Shown here one piece after another: positions 3,255 to 11,930 of a stretch of 12,170 nt of DNA. Every line of letters begins with the position of its first letter. Position 1 is the stretch's first letter. The stretch is from Promethearchaeota archaeon (GTDB taxonomy: Archaea > Asgardarchaeota > Lokiarchaeia > Sigyniarchaeales > SOKP01), in NCBI GenBank assembly GCA_048938895.1, contig JBHLLU010000088.1, forward strand, positions 1-12,170, written 5' to 3'. The position numbers and the translations under genes are program-made. Under the pieces are notes generated by a model. That model searched no databases. It saw only the letters and a list, made by a program, of their open reading frames with translations, and was not told the DNA's origin.

Positions 3255-4121
3255 ATGTCTGATGATATAACTATAAAAGATGGGTTTGTTTTTGGAGGGT
3301 GGCGTGAACCTAAAAATATTTGGAGAAATTTAACAACTTCTATTCATGATGATTCAACAGCTCAAAAAGTTGGAATGAGGGGTGGAACAATACCTGGTAC
3401 AATTCATCTTAGTTTATTCCCTCCCGTAATGCTAGAAGTTTTTGGAGATCAGTGGTTTGAAACGGGTTCATTAAGTTTATATTATACTTTTGCTACTACT
3501 GATCGAGAGAAAGTAAGGGCTGTTATTGCTCAACCTCCAGAGGGAGCAACAGATATTCAAGTAGAAGCAAGAGTAGAAATGCCAGATGGAAAGATAGTTG
3601 CTAAAGGAACTGTTTCAATTGGTAAACCAAATGAAAAATCATACCTGCAAGCTTTAGAGCTTAAAAGTAGCGATCCTGAGGAAATCCGCATTCTTTCTGA
3701 ATTCAAAACAGGGTACGAATTTCAACCACGAGAATTTGTAATAACACAAGAGCAAGTTGAGAAGGAACTTGTTGCGATTACAGATCATCTTGCATATTAT
3801 AAAGGTAATTCTCCGTGGGGATGTGGTATTCTTTCGCCTACGGCAATGAATCGTGTGATGGCTTTAGGAGCAGAGTTAACTGCCACTAGGACACTCAACG
3901 CTGTGGCATTCTATGGAGCCACCGAGATACAAAATATAAACGGACCTGTTAAAGTTGAAGTTCCTTATAAAGTAACTGGGAAAATAGTATGCGTTGGAGC
4001 GAGTCCTAAAACAGAATATTTCTGGTATGATTCATTGTTAGAAGAAAAAGAAAGTGGGAAACAAATTGCAACGATGCGTCATATGAATCGCTTTATGAAA
4101 GTCTCTTCATCATTATATTAA
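3255..4121 (+). CDS. Double-hotdog-fold protein, MaoC-like (R)-hydratase/dehydratase related
   Basis: 'SIHDDSTAQKVGMRGGTIPGTIH' matches the MaoC hydratase-2 motif (xIHxDxxxAxxxGxxGxIxxG). Second half 'SPWG..ILSPT ... YGATEIQNINGPVKV...Y.V.G.I' resembles a second hotdog unit. Confidence 0.65.
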   Translation: MSDDITIKDGFVFGGWREPKNIWRNLTTSIHDDSTAQKVGMRGGTIPGTIHLSLFPPVMLEVFGDQWFETGSLSLYYTFATTDREKVRAVIAQPPEGATDIQVEARVEMPDGKIVAKGTVSIGKPNEKSYLQALELKSSDPEEIRILSEFKTGYEFQPREFVITQEQVEKELVAITDHLAYYKGNSPWGCGILSPTAMNRVMALGAELTATRTLNAVAFYGATEIQNINGPVKVEVPYKVTGKIVCVGASPKTEYFWYDSLLEEKESGKQIATMRHMNRFMKVSSSLY

Positions 4122-4913: not shown

Positions 4914-5075
4914 AATAGAATTAGAGTCAAGAGCACTTTAAAGCTTTAATTTTATAATTTAAAAATATGAAATCTTTTGCATTTTTATTTATTAAATAAG
5001 CTTTAAAAATGAAGGTAATCTATTTACATTATTGTATATTTTCTTAATAGCGAATTTCAATTTAAACCGATTAAG

Positions 5076-6209
5076 ATGAAGTTGAAACCATCAAAAAAGG
5101 ATATTATTCCTTCAATTACCTCAGCTATTTTTTTCTCTTGGTGCATACTATGGGTAGTAGCTCTTTTTGTTGGTTGGATTCCACTGGATGTAATCAGAAT
5201 ACTCTATTTTTTATTACCAATCCCTTGGGTGATTCTTATAATCATTGTCTGGATAAATTGGAAAAACATTAAGAATAAAATTCTTTATCCAGAATATGGA
5301 AAAGCACATTTTGATCCTCTATATATAAAAGAAGGGCTTGTTAGATTATTTCAAATTGTATTAGTCTTCATTGTTTTCATTTATTATATTATGCTCCAAG
5401 TGTATGACCAGATTACGCTTATTCCTTCAGGACTCCTAGTGGTTGTCAATGCAATTCTTGCTTATTTCGGATTTAAACCAGCTGATGTATTGCCTAAGGA
5501 TTATGTTATTGAAAGTTTAAATGAAAATGTTCCTACAAACAAGAAACTTCTTAGCTCGCTTCCTGTTGTTAAGGATGCCCTCAATCAATTTGAGGTACTA
5601 TTCAAAAAAACAATTGATAATATTGAGGAATTAATTAAAAGGGTGAATGTTAATACAAATGATGTAATTACCCGTATTGAAGAAAGGCTAGTTGACCTTG
5701 AAAAAATAGCAAATAATATTCCATATTACAGTTTTTCACGGGATCCCTTTGATAAATATAATTATCTCGCATTGGTAGTATTATTAGCTATAATAAACAT
5801 AATTGCTCAACCTGCTTTTGACATCCCTTCTTATATTGCTCTACCAACATTCTCAATCTTTGGGATACTCATTGGCGTTTCTGCTCGTAATAAAATCAAT
5901 GGAAATATATCTAACAAACTTTTAGAAGATATAGAAGCCTTAAAAAAAGAATTAAATTCCTATAAGGAGAATTTAGCTTCAGTATCAAATTATACCTCAG
6001 AAAAACTCCAAGAATTAAATTTATTGTATGAGGCATTTATAAACAGTAATTTCCTTGAATTTCTTCCCGCTAATTACTCACCCCTTCTATCTATTGCATT
6101 TGTATCTTTTCTTTCTCTTTTCATTTTCATTCTCCCTTTACCCGTTCCAGAAGCTTTATTTACGACAATGCAGTGGTTTGTAATATATTATTTTACAACA
6201 AAACAATAA
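5076..6209 (+). CDS. Uncharacterised multi-pass membrane protein (about 8 TM helices in 4 hairpins, two coiled-coil loops)
   Basis: Hydrophobic pairs at about aa 10-62, 91-133, 230-269 and 336-373. Heptad-like charged helices at about aa 163-214 and 279-322. No recognisable catalytic motif. Confidence 0.8.
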   Translation: MKLKPSKKDIIPSITSAIFFSWCILWVVALFVGWIPLDVIRILYFLLPIPWVILIIIVWINWKNIKNKILYPEYGKAHFDPLYIKEGLVRLFQIVLVFIVFIYYIMLQVYDQITLIPSGLLVVVNAILAYFGFKPADVLPKDYVIESLNENVPTNKKLLSSLPVVKDALNQFEVLFKKTIDNIEELIKRVNVNTNDVITRIEERLVDLEKIANNIPYYSFSRDPFDKYNYLALVVLLAIINIIAQPAFDIPSYIALPTFSIFGILIGVSARNKINGNISNKLLEDIEALKKELNSYKENLASVSNYTSEKLQELNLLYEAFINSNFLEFLPANYSPLLSIAFVSFLSLFIFILPLPVPEALFTTMQWFVIYYFTTKQ

Positions 6210-6219
6210 TTTTTTTTTT
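6210..6219 (+). terminator. Oligo-T tract, putative archaeal-type terminator
   Basis: T10 run immediately after the TAA of 5076-6209. Confidence 0.45.
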
Positions 6220-6343
6220 AATGAGTTTCAAGAGCATATCTCGAATACTTTTCTAAATATTTAAATATAATAGAGTTATTTTTTACTTTGTTGGCGAAGT
6301 TTCTCTACAAGAATGTAGATAATTAAAATTTGTGGAGTTTTTG

Positions 6344-9250
6344 ATGTTTAAAGACATTTTAAATAAAATGAAAGCAGAAAGTAAAGGTGTTCAACCAAAA
6401 AAACAAAAAAAATCTTCGAAAAAACCTAAAGTCAAAAAGACTCCATCAAAAAAACCTAAAATCAAACCAGAACCTCAAAAACCTGTGATCTCCCAACCTC
6501 AAATCAAACTACAACCTCAAAAACTTGTGATTTCTCAACCTAAAAAGGTTAAAAAAGAAAAATTGAAAAAAATAGAAGAAAAAGAAGAACTCCAAATAGA
6601 AAAAGCTGAGATCCAAATAAGTAAAGAAGAAGGTAAAAAGGATATCCAAAGTAGAGAAACCAAACCAGTTATTAAAGAAGAAGTTAAAGAACCACTTAAA
6701 ATAAAAATAAAAACTAAAGAAGAAGAAAAAATGCAAATTGAAGAAGATATAAAAAAAAAGACAGTAGAACAAGTTGGAATCCCTTTAATGGAATTCGAAG
6801 GAGATGCTTCAGCACCAATCTTGAGATATGATCTCCCAAGCCCTTCCTCGTATGAGGGAAGATTCTATCTCGAAATAAAGTTGGATGAGGACTTTTTTGA
6901 TCCAAATAAAACATCTCAAGCATTAGAGCATGAATCTTTGTTAAAGAAGTTCTTAACCAAAAATAAAGCTGATATTTTAGAGTATTTAGAAAAGATTACT
7001 ATAGAAGAATTAGAGCGAGATGTATATGAAGTTCTTAAACAACAAGATGTCTTGAAGCTTGGGGAAAAAGAAAAAGAAAAAATTAAAGAGATAGTAAAAA
7101 AAATACTTATAGAAAAAGGAACAATAGCCGGAATAGCAATTGCAGGATCAAACGATTGGTGTTATTATTGGTACAATGATGGTACGGTGAGTGCGGGCTC
7201 TAGTTCTAATGGTGGAAAATATAAAGCACCTTACAGATATTCGCTCTATGGAAGTAGAAAATACCAGGATATTGTGGGTATTGGGATTGCGGGATCCAAT
7301 GATTGGTGTTATTATTGGTATAAAGATGGTAAAGTAAGTGCGGGTATGTCATCTAATTCTGTCAAATATAAAAGCCCCTATTCTTATAAATTACCTCCTG
7401 GCAAAAATTATGAAGATATTGTGGGTATTGGGATTGCGGGATCGAATGATAGGTGTTATTATTGGTATAAAGATGGTACTGTAAGTTCTGGTACTAGTTC
7501 TGATGCGGGAAAATATAAAGCTCCTTATGACTATATTTTACCTCCCGGTAAAAAATATGAAGATATTGTAGGTATTGGGATTGCGGGATCCAATGATTGG
7601 TGTTATTATTGGTATAAAGATGGTACAGTAAGTGCAGGTACAAGTTCCAATGCAGGACAATATAAAGCACCTTATAAATATGTCTTGCCTCAAGGTAAAA
7701 AACCTGTCATCACGGATGAGATTGAAGTCGTAGAAGAAGTTCAACAAGAAGAAGAAGTCCCTGTTCCCCTAAGCCTAGAAGAAAAATATGAACTCTTTGA
7801 ATATTACATAAGGATTGCATTAATTGAAGAAAATGTGTTTCCGAGCTTTTATAGAACTATGGGAGGACGCTTAAAATTAACATTTGGAAAAGTAAAAGAT
7901 CTAACTCCGACTTTGATGTTTATTGAAACTTATAAGTTAACAGCATTTCCCGGGGATTATGGTGCTGGGTCGACCATTCAAACGTTTTCTCTCCTTCCAA
8001 AAGAAGTATCTGAGATTAGTGTTAAAACCTGGAAAAGAACCCAAGACAAAATAGATGAAGCCTCATCCATTTTTGATTCGTATACTGAAGATAAAGCTGA
8101 TGAGTTTGAAAATAGTATTCAAAATGAAAGCTCCCGCTCTTCAAAAGTAGAAAATTCTACATCATATCACGTTGATGTAGGAGTGAACGCAAGCTGGGGT
8201 TGGGGTAGTGCTGGTGTAAATGCTGGAACAGCAGGGAGTTCAAAATCCGCGAGAGAAGAATTTTCTAAAAATGTAATGAATGCTGCCTCCAAACATGCTC
8301 AAAGTGCAAGCTCTAAACGTGAAGTAAGCGTTAATACTAGCTTCGAAAGAAGTGTTGAAACAGAGGAAGAAACTGTGATTATGAGAAGAATTGAAAACTT
8401 GAATGCTAGCAGAACTCTAAATTTCACTTTTCGTCAAATGAATCAAGAATATCACTCAATTTTACACTTAACAGATGTAAGGTTAGCTTATTATAATGGT
8501 TTTCCGGGGAGCATGAAAGAATATGCATTATATGAACTAGAAAACCTAATAAAGAAACAAATGATTGATCCTGATGATTATCTAAAGACTGAACCCGAAC
8601 CTGAAGAATATTTAATAGCTGCAGGGACAAAATCTCCACAAACCTATGAACAAGCCAAAAATAAATATAATCAGGTCCACAACGAACTAAAACAGATTAT
8701 TTTAAATGAATACGGAAACGTTTATGATTATCAAGGAACTATGACTCCGCTAATTGAAGAAATTAACATGTTAGATGGTAAAATTAATTACTTAAGAATT
8801 ATCCCATCTATGACGATATATAATGAAAACACAGGTGAATACGAAATTAAAGGTAGACAAGCATATACTATACGAGAATCAAATAAAGAAACAAATCAAC
8901 CTAAAGATGTTCGATGGGTGGATGGAGTTATTATATCTACAAATAAAGTTACTATGAAAACAGATGGTGTTATTGTGGAATCTTTATTGGGACAAGGAAA
9001 TGCGTTAGATAACTTCTCTCTTGAAGCAAGAGAAGAAAAATTGAAAAAAGAGTTCTTTGAAAATGAACTTAGAAAAGCTGAAATTGAAAAAGTAAAGACA
9101 GGTATAAAAATAATAGAAGCACTTATAAACAGTGGGCAATTGGCAAAAGCTATTGACTCTTATAAGGAAATTTTCGGTATACAAACGGGACTAAAAACTT
9201 TCGGAGAAATCTTTGATCATCCAAGCCTAAAGATTGAAAAGAAGCTCTAG
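6344..9250 (+). CDS. Large multidomain protein: Lys/Pro-rich N-terminus, four 49-aa aromatic repeats, putative beta-pore-forming-toxin-like domain, C-terminal coiled coil
   Basis: Uninterrupted ORF. The track starts at GTG 6332, but ATG 6344 has GGAG 6 nt upstream and is the likelier start. Repeats at 7124-7702; Ser/Thr-rich amphipathic hairpin 'YHVDVGVNASWGWGSAGVNAGTAG' at 8165-8236; helical tail 'EAREEKLKKEFFENELRKAEIEKVK'. The CDS is secure; the function is inferred. Confidence 0.7.
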   Translation: MFKDILNKMKAESKGVQPKKQKKSSKKPKVKKTPSKKPKIKPEPQKPVISQPQIKLQPQKLVISQPKKVKKEKLKKIEEKEELQIEKAEIQISKEEGKKDIQSRETKPVIKEEVKEPLKIKIKTKEEEKMQIEEDIKKKTVEQVGIPLMEFEGDASAPILRYDLPSPSSYEGRFYLEIKLDEDFFDPNKTSQALEHESLLKKFLTKNKADILEYLEKITIEELERDVYEVLKQQDVLKLGEKEKEKIKEIVKKILIEKGTIAGIAIAGSNDWCYYWYNDGTVSAGSSSNGGKYKAPYRYSLYGSRKYQDIVGIGIAGSNDWCYYWYKDGKVSAGMSSNSVKYKSPYSYKLPPGKNYEDIVGIGIAGSNDRCYYWYKDGTVSSGTSSDAGKYKAPYDYILPPGKKYEDIVGIGIAGSNDWCYYWYKDGTVSAGTSSNAGQYKAPYKYVLPQGKKPVITDEIEVVEEVQQEEEVPVPLSLEEKYELFEYYIRIALIEENVFPSFYRTMGGRLKLTFGKVKDLTPTLMFIETYKLTAFPGDYGAGSTIQTFSLLPKEVSEISVKTWKRTQDKIDEASSIFDSYTEDKADEFENSIQNESSRSSKVENSTSYHVDVGVNASWGWGSAGVNAGTAGSSKSAREEFSKNVMNAASKHAQSASSKREVSVNTSFERSVETEEETVIMRRIENLNASRTLNFTFRQMNQEYHSILHLTDVRLAYYNGFPGSMKEYALYELENLIKKQMIDPDDYLKTEPEPEEYLIAAGTKSPQTYEQAKNKYNQVHNELKQIILNEYGNVYDYQGTMTPLIEEINMLDGKINYLRIIPSMTIYNENTGEYEIKGRQAYTIRESNKETNQPKDVRWVDGVIISTNKVTMKTDGVIVESLLGQGNALDNFSLEAREEKLKKEFFENELRKAEIEKVKTGIKIIEALINSGQLAKAIDSYKEIFGIQTGLKTFGEIFDHPSLKIEKKL
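6416..6544 (+). repeat. Short in-frame tandem repeats in the Lys-rich N-terminus (30-bp and 42-bp units)
   Basis: SKKPKVKKTP / SKKPKIK (6416-6445, 6446-6466) and IKPEPQKPVISQPQ / IKLQPQKLVISQPK (6461-6502, 6503-6544), also visible at DNA level. Confidence 0.75.
7124..7702 (+). repeat. Four tandem 147-bp (49-aa) coding repeats
   Basis: Units start at 7124, 7271, 7418 and 7565 (exact 147-bp period). Consensus IVGIGIAGSNDWCYYWYKDGTVSAGxSSNaGKYKAPYxYxLPPGKKYED; the fourth unit ends at LPQGKK. Confidence 0.95.
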
Positions 9251-9332
9251 TAAATAACTGATAACCATAAATAGGGAATATTATCAGAAAAATCCACAAT
9301 TTCTATATTAAAATTTAAGATGGTATATAGAT

Positions 9333-10514
9333 GTGAAGGGAACAGATAAGAAAATTTTAGAAGCTCCAGTTGATAAGAAGGAAATTACAAAATCTGCTGA
9401 TGAAAAAATATTAGAAGCAGGAATTAAAAAGATTGAAGAAAAGATACAATTCTTGTTAGTAGATCATTTGACTGTGAGGGAAAAAACTGAAGAAAACATA
9501 GAAACAGTATTAGATTTGATAAATGCCCTACAAGCAGAAATTAACAATATCGGAATTATAGCGGAAAACGCTCATCAAAAAGAAGAACAGTACCAAACAG
9601 CTTCAAATACAATACAAAAATCTTTAAATTCTCGTAAAAATGTCTTAAATACTGCTCAAAATGCTGTAGACGGCAAAATTTCAGTTGATACTATATTAAA
9701 ACAAATCTATGATGAATTTAGGAAGGCGTTTGGTGAATTGATGAAAGTTGGAAAAGCTGTCGGAATTATAGTAGAACTTTATCTACACAATGAAAGAACG
9801 TTCATTATCCCTGAAGTAGTTAATATTTTAAAAAGAATAATTGGTATTACAGAGGAGTTAGTAGGAGGGATGTTTGAATCTCAAAATGAAGTTCTAGAGG
9901 GAATAGACGCTTTGAATAAGGTAAAAGATGCTATTCAATCATTAGATGTAATTAATCCTCAAGAAATTCAATCAATATTAGATTTAATAATAGAGGTAGA
10001 CTTAGAAAATCGAATTGAAAATACGTTTAGAATGGCGCAAAATGTAAATATGGTAAATTCAGGGGCAGTTAATGAAATAGAAGATGAATTATTAGAAATA
10101 AATCCGATAAGAGAAGCAGAAGCTATTGCATTACAAGGAATACAGCCGTCTTGTAATGATATTAATAATGCTGTAATAAATAGTAGAAAAAATGCCGAAA
10201 AAGCCGCAGAATTGGCAAAGCAAGCTTCTTCAGAGGTTCAGGATCAAGCGAAAGAAGTTACATCAGATATAAATGTCTTAGTCGGTATAGCCGAAGAAGG
10301 AGCTAATACTTTTACAAAAGCAGATGAAACACTTACACTAATTTTAGATAAATTAAATGAGGCGACTCAAGTTAGTCAGAATCTATTTGGATCTATTAAT
10401 GAAATAGAACAATCTACCTTACTTATAACCGAAATACTCGAAAATACCGTAAAAGATTTTGAGGATATGGTAAGGAATTTTGATGAATTAAATATATATC
10501 TTGCTAATGTCTAA
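9333..10514 (+). CDS. Uncharacterised acidic all-alpha coiled-coil protein (superficially like an MCP signalling domain but lacking the conserved tip)
   Basis: GTG start, 393 aa, rich in E/I/N/A/Q heptads, no Trp, no clear TM segment. The C-terminal part 'NAEKAAELAKQASSEVQDQAKEV...SINEIEQST' resembles MCP methylation helices, but no LLALNAAIEAARAG motif is present. Confidence 0.7.
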   Translation: MKGTDKKILEAPVDKKEITKSADEKILEAGIKKIEEKIQFLLVDHLTVREKTEENIETVLDLINALQAEINNIGIIAENAHQKEEQYQTASNTIQKSLNSRKNVLNTAQNAVDGKISVDTILKQIYDEFRKAFGELMKVGKAVGIIVELYLHNERTFIIPEVVNILKRIIGITEELVGGMFESQNEVLEGIDALNKVKDAIQSLDVINPQEIQSILDLIIEVDLENRIENTFRMAQNVNMVNSGAVNEIEDELLEINPIREAEAIALQGIQPSCNDINNAVINSRKNAEKAAELAKQASSEVQDQAKEVTSDINVLVGIAEEGANTFTKADETLTLILDKLNEATQVSQNLFGSINEIEQSTLLITEILENTVKDFEDMVRNFDELNIYLANV

Positions 10515-10559
10515 GTCGTATCTACTCTTAACTAAGAATTTTGTTTGAAATAATCTTAA

Positions 10560-10570
10560 TTTTTTATTTT
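10560..10570 (+). terminator. Oligo-T tract downstream of the coiled-coil gene
   Basis: TTTTTTTATTTT-like run about 45 nt after the 10514 stop, in a convergent intergenic region. Confidence 0.35.
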
Positions 10571-10658
10571 GAAAATCTATCATTCTAAAGGGTTTTTAAG
10601 TTAAATATGATAAATCAAAGAGTCAATGATAAAATATTTTTACTGAATTTCAATAAAT

Positions 10659-11459
10659 TTATCCTAGTTTAATCCCACACTTATAACAAAATTTTGTATT
10701 ACTTGTATTTATATACCCACACGAAGAACACAACTTATTTAGTTTTTTCATTTTCTTTTGGTTAGTTTTTTCCTGAAATATTTTTTCTCCCTTAGCTTTT
10801 TGATATAGCATTGCCCAAATAATTAACCCAATTGTAGAACATGCTATAATTCCACCCATAAAAATCTGAAAAGGATTATAATTCACGCTATAATAATAAA
10901 ACATTAATTGAGGTTTATAATCATCTAGAAGATGCTCTCTTGAGGAAAAGTTAACAACTTGATAATATTGATGAAAAGGCACTATACAGATGGAAAGTTC
11001 ACTCTCAGATAAATGAGAAGATATATCAATAATGATTTCTGAATCATATTCAACTCTGAATGAAAGTAAATCTTTTCCTAAAGATGGTCTATTAGACCAG
11101 GATATTGATGATTCTTCCCAATTTTCTACGACTTCATAGAGATCGAAATCCATTAAATTAGAAAAAAAATTAAATTTAAGACTAATTTCTACTTTTTTCC
11201 AACCTAAATCTATTTCACTAAGATCAAAACAAATGTATGCTTCGCAAAAAAAGGTCGTTCCCGTCATTGGAACGTAGAATGTACCACATTCCATATTGAT
11301 TCTTTCACCAAAATTCTTATTAGGTTCATAGCTATTAACATATGAATCTTTATTAGGGTACAAAAAAGTATTAGAAGCTTGGACTGAATTAGCAAATATA
11401 GAAATCAATAAAATTATAAAATAAAAAGATATTGTAATTGGAATGATCTTCTTTTTCAC
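10659..11459 (-). CDS. Membrane-anchored surface protein: signal peptide, DNRLRE/CBM96-like domain, TM helix, cytoplasmic zinc ribbon
   Basis: Signal 'MKKKIIPITISFYFIILLISIFANSVQA'. DNRLRE-type motifs 'DSYV...PNKNFG', 'YICFDLS', 'WEESSISWSNRP', 'SSRE....KPQL'. TM 'IFMGGIIACSTIGLIIWAMLY'. C-terminal 'CSSCG..N....KFCYKCG.KL'. Confidence 0.8.
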   Translation of the reverse strand: MKKKIIPITISFYFIILLISIFANSVQASNTFLYPNKDSYVNSYEPNKNFGERINMECGTFYVPMTGTTFFCEAYICFDLSEIDLGWKKVEISLKFNFFSNLMDFDLYEVVENWEESSISWSNRPSLGKDLLSFRVEYDSEIIIDISSHLSESELSICIVPFHQYYQVVNFSSREHLLDDYKPQLMFYYYSVNYNPFQIFMGGIIACSTIGLIIWAMLYQKAKGEKIFQEKTNQKKMKKLNKLCSSCGYINTSNTKFCYKCGIKLG

Positions 11460-11569
11460 ATTGATCGCAAATAGACTAGGTTTGACTATTCTTGATTAAG
11501 ATTCTAATATATATAAATTTTGTATTAAAACTAAATTCAATCTTTAATTCAAAATTACGAAAGGAATCT

Positions 11570-11785
11570 TTATAATCTAAAGCCATACTTATACAAGAGC
11601 ATTATGACTCCCGTTATAATATAACACCCTATAAATATAATTCCCATTGTAATACCGCAATATTTTAAAGCTATATGAGTGGCTTTCTTAAGATTCTTCT
11701 GATATTCACAACTAGGACATCTAAATTCTGTCTGACTATTATCCAGATAATATATTTCGGCCCCACAATCTATACAATTAGGCAA
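11570..11785 (-). CDS. Small Zn-finger (CxxC...CPxC) protein with a C-terminal TM anchor
   Basis: 'PNCIDCG-x13-RCPSC' followed by hydrophobic 'GITMGIIFIGCYIITGVIMLLY'. TTG start preceded by GAGG on the minus strand. Confidence 0.65.
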   Translation of the reverse strand: MPNCIDCGAEIYYLDNSQTEFRCPSCEYQKNLKKATHIALKYCGITMGIIFIGCYIITGVIMLLYKYGFRL

Positions 11786-11930
11786 AATTCGAGATCCTCA
11801 TTTATTGATTATCCTTTAATGTCAAATGATGCATAGATAATCAAGCTAATATACTTGATCCTATATGAACAATTTATTTATGATAAGCAAACTCAGAATA
11901 AGATGTTAAAATAAAAGATAATTAAATTCT

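Follow-up and report, generated by a model that had tools for sequence, protein, structure and literature searches.

Do three adjoining genes on an Asgard archaeal contig make up a membrane-attack system, and if so, which of them belong to it? The question arose at contig JBHLLU010000088.1 of a Promethearchaeota archaeon. The stretch analysed, hereafter the window, is the entire 12,170-nucleotide (nt) contig (C20 in our numbering) of a 4.65-Mb Asgard-type assembly, and the closest protein relatives of its products are labelled Promethearchaeota, Thorarchaeota, Odinarchaeota and Hermodarchaeota. An earlier note, made from the letters alone, had proposed a pore-forming system of three co-oriented genes, here called A, B and C, and open reading frame (ORF) calls at 5076-6209, 6332-9250 and 9333-10514 confirmed their arrangement.

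Gene A: 5076..6209, + strand; 377 amino acids (aa), from the ORF call, hydropathy and an alignment of 26 homologues.
Gene B: 6344..9250, + strand; 968 aa from the ATG at 6344, a modular, signal-less, pore-former-like protein.
Gene C: 9333..10514, + strand; 393 aa from a GTG start, a helix-rich orphan with heptad periodicity.

Of the proposed three-gene system, the part formed by A and B stood and the part of C did not. The explanation that we favour, tentatively and at slightly less than an even chance, is that A and a leader-tagged cargo form one module, in which the conserved portion of B would be an aerolysin-like pore former of a large undescribed family and A would act as a docking, export or release factor.

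The link between A and B runs through the N-terminal leader of B. The ORF of B opens at a GTG at 6332 (972 aa); we placed the start at the ATG at 6344 because the database copy of the protein (P0001) has 968 aa, a GGAG lies 6 nt upstream and leader-bearing homologues all begin there.

Leader of B: 6344..6778, + strand; conserved first ~15 residues of the MF..L.K.KAE type, then a poly-lysine run and a low-complexity spacer rich in K, E and P; 29% K.

M1, F2 and L6 of the leader are invariant in all 12 leader-bearing sequences (12/12). Ten loci with a close A homologue were inspected, with the following neighbours.

Window: 3' of A, the leader fused to a B-family protein.
L005: 3' of A, the leader fused to a B-family protein.
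L102: 3' of A, a leader ORF cut by the contig end.
L106: 3' of A, a separate 410-aa leader ORF, then an 891-aa distant relative of B.
L111 (G253): 3' of A, a separate 628-aa leader ORF, then a 2642-aa TcA-like protein.
L103: beside A, a convergent ORF that matches the TcA-like C-terminus (E-value, E, 9e-9).
L105: beside A, a convergent ORF with a similar tail and no BLAST match.
L104: beside A, a convergent ORF that is uninformative.
G231:C64: a TcA-like gene (matching the L111 ORF, E 5e-121) co-directionally upstream of A; the contig breaks off on the downstream side of A.
L101: A at the contig end, preceded by 870 nt of upstream sequence.

The next ORF opens with the leader in all five loci that have co-directional sequence 3' of a close A homologue (the window, L005, L102, L106 and L111), and the cargo encoded there differs between them. 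The 891-aa protein of L106 aligns with B at an hhalign probability of 94.7% (E 6e-8) and has an alternating hairpin of its own, and the L111 ORF at 10451-18379 contains the domains of a Tc toxin A subunit (PF18276, TcA_TcB_BD, 2e-82; PF20220, ABC_toxin_N, 8e-25; PF18413, neuraminidase-like, 8e-14). Beside these B-type, divergent B-like and TcA-like cargos, A remains 60-88% identical. Conversely, among the 80 B-family loci described below A was found only in L005, and it is absent beside Asgard B homologues that are leaderless or have a helix-hairpin-helix (HhH) N-terminus (L001, L003, L004, L006-L009 and G231:C47, four of them with 3 kb or more of sequence upstream). A goes with the leader and not with the pore module. 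Since it follows the leader and stays conserved while the cargo family changes, A is better read as a docking, export or release partner than as a toxin-specific immunity protein, which, judged from the gene neighbourhoods, it probably is not. The suggested link between the large protein and the upstream membrane protein is thus upheld by the recurrence of close A homologues beside leader-tagged B-family, B-like or TcA-like genes; among the roles that had been offered for A (immunity, receptor or release factor), release fits better, and immunity fares poorly against the constancy of A across cargo families. The genome of the window has one copy each of A, B, C and the leader, and no TcA-like gene was found there. 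TcA-like proteins occur at several places in Asgard genomes (L111 10451-18379; L140 2377-6000, - strand; L003 10755-11744, - strand; L103 1362-1985, - strand), and several of their genes are near A or B homologues.

The protein encoded by A has about eight hydrophobic or transmembrane (TM) segments in four hairpins, according to hydropathy and the alignment of 26 homologues, together with two predicted helical regions (~residues 135-225 and 270-335) and a conserved C-terminal YYF-T-K motif. By the positive-inside rule, the helical regions and the lysine-rich loops are predicted to face the cytoplasm. A large protein collection contained 30 relatives, 29 of them at 60-80% identity and almost all 377-380 aa long, and every source was Asgard. 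In genomes A is rare: two of 60 related genomes gave a match, both weak, and a scan of 400 genomes from the phylum gave seven at E 1e-5 or better, its own included; close ones occur only in G231 (78%) and G253 (70%). Two profile hits to A were rejected as composition matches to a helical segment: DUF2508 (28 bits, residues 155-192), with no other homologue carrying a precomputed Pfam tag, and the PADLOC model LmuB (6e-5), a weak match of coiled-coil type. Sequence comparison of A with the PDB gave coiled-coil noise only. Remote homologues (24-34% identity; L112-L115) lie in different, non-toxin contexts and were not taken as evidence; one of them, in L115 (G049:C439, 3145-4471, - strand; 25-28% identical), is convergent to two ORFs that by eye look like an ATPase and nuclease-type pair. 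A complex prediction of A with the first 60 residues of B scored 0.19, against a mark of 0.32, and carries no weight either way.

The conserved module of B is common, with 162 relatives in many phyla, yet it has no counterpart in Pfam, NCBIfam or the PDB. A database search with residues 470-972 retrieved 160 proteins. The 162 relatives come from a one-genome-per-species scan of bacteria and archaea, and the locus counts given here rest on the 80 loci that were kept from it; they span Bacillota, Actinomycetota, Bacteroidota, Cyanobacteria, Planctomycetota, Acidobacteriota, Nitrososphaeria, haloarchaea and others. Over the module, Asgard homologues are 41-60% identical, and bacterial and other archaeal proteins (~540-650 aa) 34-41%. 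Among close relatives of the host the distribution is patchy (7/60 related genomes, weak matches counted). B itself gave nothing significant in Pfam (E 0.1 or better), NCBIfam, PHROGs or PADLOC and no PDB relative by sequence. No Pfam family was assigned to the conserved module in any of 76 aligned members (E 0.01 or better); Pfam names only their variable parts (HhH in four, LamG-like in two, and CBM or discoidin-type domains in single cases). The extra domain of one member (P0117, 617 aa) is a ribosomal L7/L12 C-terminal domain (PF00542, 5e-19), an odd fusion. The absence of recognisable enzyme motifs that the earlier note had reported agrees with the profile searches, which returned no enzyme family for A, B or C in Pfam, NCBIfam, PHROGs or PADLOC. 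IMG/VR held no relative of B or A. A Foldseek search of BFVD with the B model gave a sole significant match, to an uncharacterised 642-aa protein of Yasminevirus (A0A5K0U6Q4; E 1.9e-10, TM score only 0.28), and from this one weak structural match the family may reach giant viruses or their hosts.

Downstream of the leader, B is built from the following parts.

Conserved N-motif: 6779..6862, + strand; residues 150-177 (numbered from the GTG at 6332), the very N-terminus in bacterial homologues.
Four 49-aa tandem repeats rich in W, Y and G: 7130..7702, + strand; 147-nt period, 3.8 copies, 79% matches.
Conserved C-terminal module of ~500 aa: 7739..9247, + strand; beta core 7826-9013 and C-terminal helical hairpin ~9011-9211, from AlphaFold2 (AF2) models.
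Predicted membrane-insertion hairpin: 8156..8248, + strand; two ~12-residue arms in which polar and apolar residues strictly alternate, an aromatic-glycine WGW tip, and amphipathic helices on either side.

A helical linker joins the N-motif to the repeats. The repeat domain occupies a lineage-variable middle, in which homologues have LamG-like, discoidin-like or coiled-coil inserts or similar repeats (P0021, P0034), and the N-terminus likewise varies across homologues between a lysine-rich leader, a ComEA-type HhH domain and nothing. Bacterial homologues begin directly with the N-motif and have no signal peptide, and hydropathy indicates no TM or hydrophobic segment in B. In two loci (L003 3776-4726 and L004 2291-3241), a 316-aa protein with a metzincin-type HExxHxxGxxH motif is encoded directly 3' of leaderless B homologues; going by this motif, it could be a processing protease for that variant of B.

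Is the conserved module a pore former? AF2 models of the C-terminal module and of the beta core, built with 69 or 76 homologues, reached a predicted local distance difference test (pLDDT) score of 81.9 with a predicted template modelling (pTM) score of 0.72, and 80.2 with 0.79, respectively. They contain three strands of 25-28 residues, a helix-loop-helix insertion with a low-confidence tip, a small beta domain and the long C-terminal helical hairpin. The amphipathic hairpin is located between the long core strands, the position that defines it in aerolysin-type proteins. Its mean hydropathy alternates at every position over ~25 columns in 69 B-family sequences, and its tip is an almost invariant W-G-W-G turn (W153 in 65/69, G154 in 68/69 and W155 in 51/69). 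Such an alternating, WGW-tipped segment is, at the level of sequence, the signature of a membrane-inserting beta hairpin. VIA re-alignment of Foldseek's list placed Dln1 best (Z 4.8, 113 residues aligned, root-mean-square deviation 6.0), and the matches at Z 3.0-4.8 were Dln1, Tpp80, lamprey immune protein, Bombina aerolysin-like protein, epsilon toxin, Mpp75, CPE, parasporin-2, aerolysin and monalysin, every one spanning the three long strands. Because the whole-module VIA search was swamped by the C-terminal helical hairpin, the beta core was refolded alone, and a search with it over 48,161 chains, independent of Foldseek, had aerolysin-type pore formers in eight of the top 10 rows (Tpp80 and BinAB 4.3, the best Z; Cry78 3.9; epsilon toxin 3.7; monalysin 3.6; Sip 3.5; Bombina aerolysin-like protein 3.4; parasporin-2 3.3). 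By the calibration of the search tool, a Z below 8 may reflect a common arrangement only. The Z values do not establish a shared fold, so we say that B would work like aerolysins and claim no membership of their family. The nearest named clusters in the ESM Atlas were aerolysin (score 0.75), which we treat as a lead only. Taken together, the long strands, the conserved amphipathic hairpin and the weak but consistent aerolysin-family matches speak for the earlier description of the large protein as pore-former-like.

Under the favoured explanation, the B module would most likely be a beta-pore-former of the aerolysin kind. Its long-strand sheet would carry the helix-loop-helix insertion, and the amphipathic, WGW-capped hairpin at the tip of the insertion would enter the membrane upon oligomerisation, with the four 49-aa repeats as an exchangeable target-binding part. 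A would most likely recognise the lysine-rich leader and then dock, export or release the leader-tagged cargo.

Several results weigh against this explanation. As to pore formation, Foldseek searches of the PDB with both B models found nothing at E 0.001 or better (best E 0.1 or worse), and all structural matches of B are weak, with Z 4.8 or less. The aerolysin and ETX/MTX2 profiles (PF01117, PF03318) matched neither B nor any of the 76 members, and the MACPF profile (PF01823) matched 0/76 at E 0.01 or better; a Marivirga member of the family is named 'MACPF domain-containing' by UniProt, and that match was not reproduced. The AF2 models have confident helices on both sides of the hairpin, unlike the classical aerolysin pre-stem loop. 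The lack of a signal peptide in the B family and of a conserved bacterial neighbour suits an intracellular role as well as a secreted one. As to the link with A, in three of the eight loci with sequence 3' of A (L103, L104 and L105, on contigs of <2 kb) A is followed by a convergent gene, and the contig shows no leader gene. Five further pairs of A and B homologues (B members P0020, P0021, P0025, P0034 and P0037) would speak for the link, but that they share a contig is presumed from the equal size of their longest contigs (12440, 8470, 11510, 6571 and 4850 nt; the sources are identical in three pairs and share one in two). The neighbourhood cases are not independent, the A homologues being closely related. 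Finally, a T10 tract and a TATA-like box between A and B suggest separate transcripts.

These points leave room for other explanations. B may not be a pore former at all and may instead belong to a family of structural, adhesive or nucleic-acid-binding assembly proteins with a superficial resemblance to aerolysins. The low structural Z values and the missing profile matches would agree with this, as would paralogue N-termini of the ComEA-type HhH or poly-lysine kind, both compatible with DNA binding, and core motifs that are unusually conserved across domains for a toxin. We nevertheless regard it as unlikely: an alternating, aromatic-tipped hairpin in 69 sequences is hard to explain otherwise, aerolysin-type proteins lead the unbiased search of 48,161 chains, and the genomic company of B includes TcA-like pore formers. 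That company also bears on a second alternative, according to which B would be an intracellular effector of cell death or abortive infection, gasdermin-like, inhibited for example by its C-terminal helical hairpin, with the middle domain as a sensor and A as a membrane platform. The association with TcA-like toxins suggests antagonism of other cells instead, and inserts of the LamG, discoidin and CBM types usually serve binding outside the cell. Moreover, no PADLOC-DB 2.0 defence model matches B (nor C), and no protease or sensor is conserved as a neighbour across the 80 loci. What makes an effector conceivable, though improbable in our estimate, is that no member of the B family has a signal peptide, that B is patchy among relatives and single-copy in its own genome, that the block sits in a variable genomic slot and that the metzincin-motif gene directly follows B in L003 and L004.

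The remaining alternatives concern A. A membrane protein that directly adjoins a putative membrane-attacking protein, in an adjacency that recurs, might be a self-protection (immunity) protein or a receptor decoy against its neighbour. Immunity proteins normally co-vary with their toxin. A does not: its identity holds at 60-88% although the cargo beside it belongs to unrelated families, B-type in some loci and TcA-like in others, it is encoded upstream rather than downstream of the cargo, and leaderless B homologues have the same pore-former-like module but no A. Protection of this kind therefore seems to us quite improbable. Least probable, and indeed very unlikely, is that all three genes are unrelated neighbours whose shared orientation is due to chance. 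The T10 tract and possible separate promoters, the lack of relatives of C and the lack of a conserved neighbour in the B family overall would fit such an accident, whereas the recurrence of A beside leader-bearing genes in independent contigs and genomes, together with its absence beside leaderless B homologues, disfavours it for A and B. For C, chance proximity is our working view.

C found only itself in 60 related genomes, in a word-indexed search of 5.8 billion clusters and in a full HMMER pass over 1.84 billion representatives. It gave nothing in Pfam, NCBIfam, PHROGs and PADLOC, and nothing in the ESM Atlas, whose own model of C has a pLDDT of 0.52. Its sequence is rich in E, I, L and N and in helix, with a 3.5-residue hydrophobic periodicity at residues 57-140 and 281-392, and its PDB matches are of the tropomyosin type only (E 0.009 or worse). 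In seven other Asgard loci, the genes 3' of B homologues show no relation to C or among themselves, the close pair L003/L004 excepted. With no homologue in any search and unrelated downstream genes elsewhere, C was rejected as a conserved partner of A or B, and the proposal that the 393-aa protein is a partner, chaperone or scaffold falls with it; we regard C, as a working view, as a lineage-specific orphan in the same variable slot. The B family likewise has no conserved neighbour across the 80 loci, beyond same-genus synteny in Cohnella and Paenibacillus. The neighbourhood comparison that the earlier note had called for thus came out differently for each gene: A recurs with leader-bearing genes, the place of C is taken by unrelated genes elsewhere, and B as a whole family keeps no fixed company. 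The membrane-related or coiled-coil architecture ascribed to the three products is borne out by the hairpin segments of A, the four repeats of B and the periodicity of C.

The putative transcription signals, which the earlier note had pointed out, are present as described, read from the sequence.

T10 tract: 6210..6219, + strand; putative, directly 3' of the A stop codon, of a kind that is terminator-like in archaea.
TATA-like AT-rich box: 6260..6269, + strand; putative, ~75 nt 5' of the B ATG.
TATA-like box: 9300..9313, + strand; putative, ~20 nt 5' of the C GTG.

The box at 9300-9313 would be compatible with a separate, nearly leaderless transcript of C. A look-up of sequencing runs listed DNA runs of sediment, soil and unspecified metagenomes and no RNA run. 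ORFs of 377-968 codons at 31% G+C are far beyond chance, and the G+C content of the genes (A 0.31, B 0.33, C 0.31) is close to that of the genome (0.311). The three genes lie between metabolic and small surface-protein genes, again as first reported: on one side are genes for a nitronate monooxygenase, a GNAT protein and a nitroreductase, and on the other those for two zinc-ribbon proteins, one with a CBM96/DNRLRE domain and one a membrane protein of 71 aa. G231, the closest relative examined, has counterparts of the nitroreductase gene (82% identical) and of the gene at the right end of the window (105 aa, 87.5% identical), with one Fe-S protein gene between them. The slot at 4914-11930 of the window, which contains the A-B-C block together with the CBM96 and 71-aa genes, corresponds there to a single gene for a 372-aa Fe-S protein (L128, G231:C234, 8722-10049). 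The A-B-C block behaves as accessory DNA in a variable slot.

Three further ORFs of the window are recorded here. The one at 10659-11459 (- strand) encodes a 266-aa protein in which a CBM96/DNRLRE domain (Pfam 5.6e-15, NCBIfam 5.7e-13) follows a hydrophobic segment at the N-terminus and which ends with a TM segment and a zinc ribbon; from this layout it is predicted to be a binding protein that is anchored in the membrane and exposed at the surface, with its zinc-ribbon tail in the cytoplasm. The 71-aa ORF at 11570-11785 (- strand) has two CxxC pairs followed by a hydrophobic segment, as in a small zinc-ribbon membrane protein, and no family was assigned to it. The GNAT and nitroreductase genes flank a 288-aa ORF at 3255-4121 (+ strand), for which Pfam gave nothing at E 0.1 or better.

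Archaeal attack on, or defence against, other cells is poorly known. The one survey of Asgard transporters that our literature search retrieved lists, in the passages covered, only hemolysin-A and Hly-III homologues as pore formers (PMC7997004). In the library searched there was no description of the B family, of such an Asgard module or of an Asgard aerolysin-like or Tc system, which is not proof that there is none. Should pore formation by B prove true, a large dark family would receive a name. If A exports leader-tagged cargos, toxin export would become testable in organisms that have neither an outer membrane nor peptidoglycan, and the system would bear on the physical interaction of Asgard archaea with their partners. 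A bolder proposal, which we consider doubtful, is that A and the polybasic leader (MF..L.K.KAE followed by poly-K) constitute an unrecognised, Asgard-specific route for the delivery or release of giant signal-less pore formers, both of a new aerolysin-like superfamily and of the TcA-like type. Archaea near the ancestor of eukaryotes would then possess an arsenal devoted to membrane attack and exported by a logic of its own, and the B module would represent a new and very widespread superfamily of bacterial and archaeal pore formers with no solved relative and, from the one weak structural match, a possible giant-virus relative.

How does this compare with known systems? Like the aerolysin, ETX-MTX2 and Toxin_10 proteins (Tpp, Bin), B is modelled with very long strands in an elongated sheet and with one insertion between the core strands that bears an amphipathic, aromatic-tipped hairpin, and ahead of the putative pore module it has a distinct, exchangeable domain that would bind the target. 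It differs from them in the absence of a sequence-profile match, in Z values of only 3-4.8 and in an insertion modelled as helix-loop-helix rather than as a beta pre-stem loop; it lacks a signal peptide, a small beta domain and a long helical hairpin at the C-terminus come in addition, and its family is widespread in archaea as well. The MACPF/CDC proteins are defined by two helical clusters (TMH1 and TMH2) that flank a bent four-stranded sheet. With them B shares helices beside a bent sheet, which could be capable of refolding as a membrane hairpin, and CDC chains are among the weak Foldseek rows, but the B models contain one helical cluster, the single helix-loop-helix.

For A, the closest comparison is with the release of large toxins that lack a signal. 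As far as the available accounts go, a type 10 secretion system (T10SS) releases a signal-less Yersinia Tc toxin by means of a dedicated membrane protein (PMC10847048), and TcdE assists the release of the signal-less toxins of C. difficile (PMC12150058). By analogy, A may have a role comparable to this holin-type release: as in those systems, a dedicated membrane protein gene stands beside genes for signal-less large toxins, and the cargos of A include a TcA-like protein. Holins have <~150 aa and one to four TM segments and are encoded with an endolysin. A, with 377 aa, ~8 TM segments and large helical soluble parts, is far bigger; it matches no holin family in Pfam or PHROGs, no lysin gene was found in the window by Pfam, and no endolysin or spanin gene adjoins it. 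The A locus further departs from type 10 secretion in its archaeal host, which has no peptidoglycan, and in the conserved polybasic leader of its cargo, to our knowledge not a T10SS feature. Polymorphic toxin systems offer a third comparison. The cargos of the A-leader system differ from theirs in being whole pore formers and not small enzymatic tips, the leader is a separate ORF before the cargo in two loci, and no conserved immunity gene follows downstream; what the two have in common is the combination of a conserved leader, interchangeable cargos and a conserved accessory gene.

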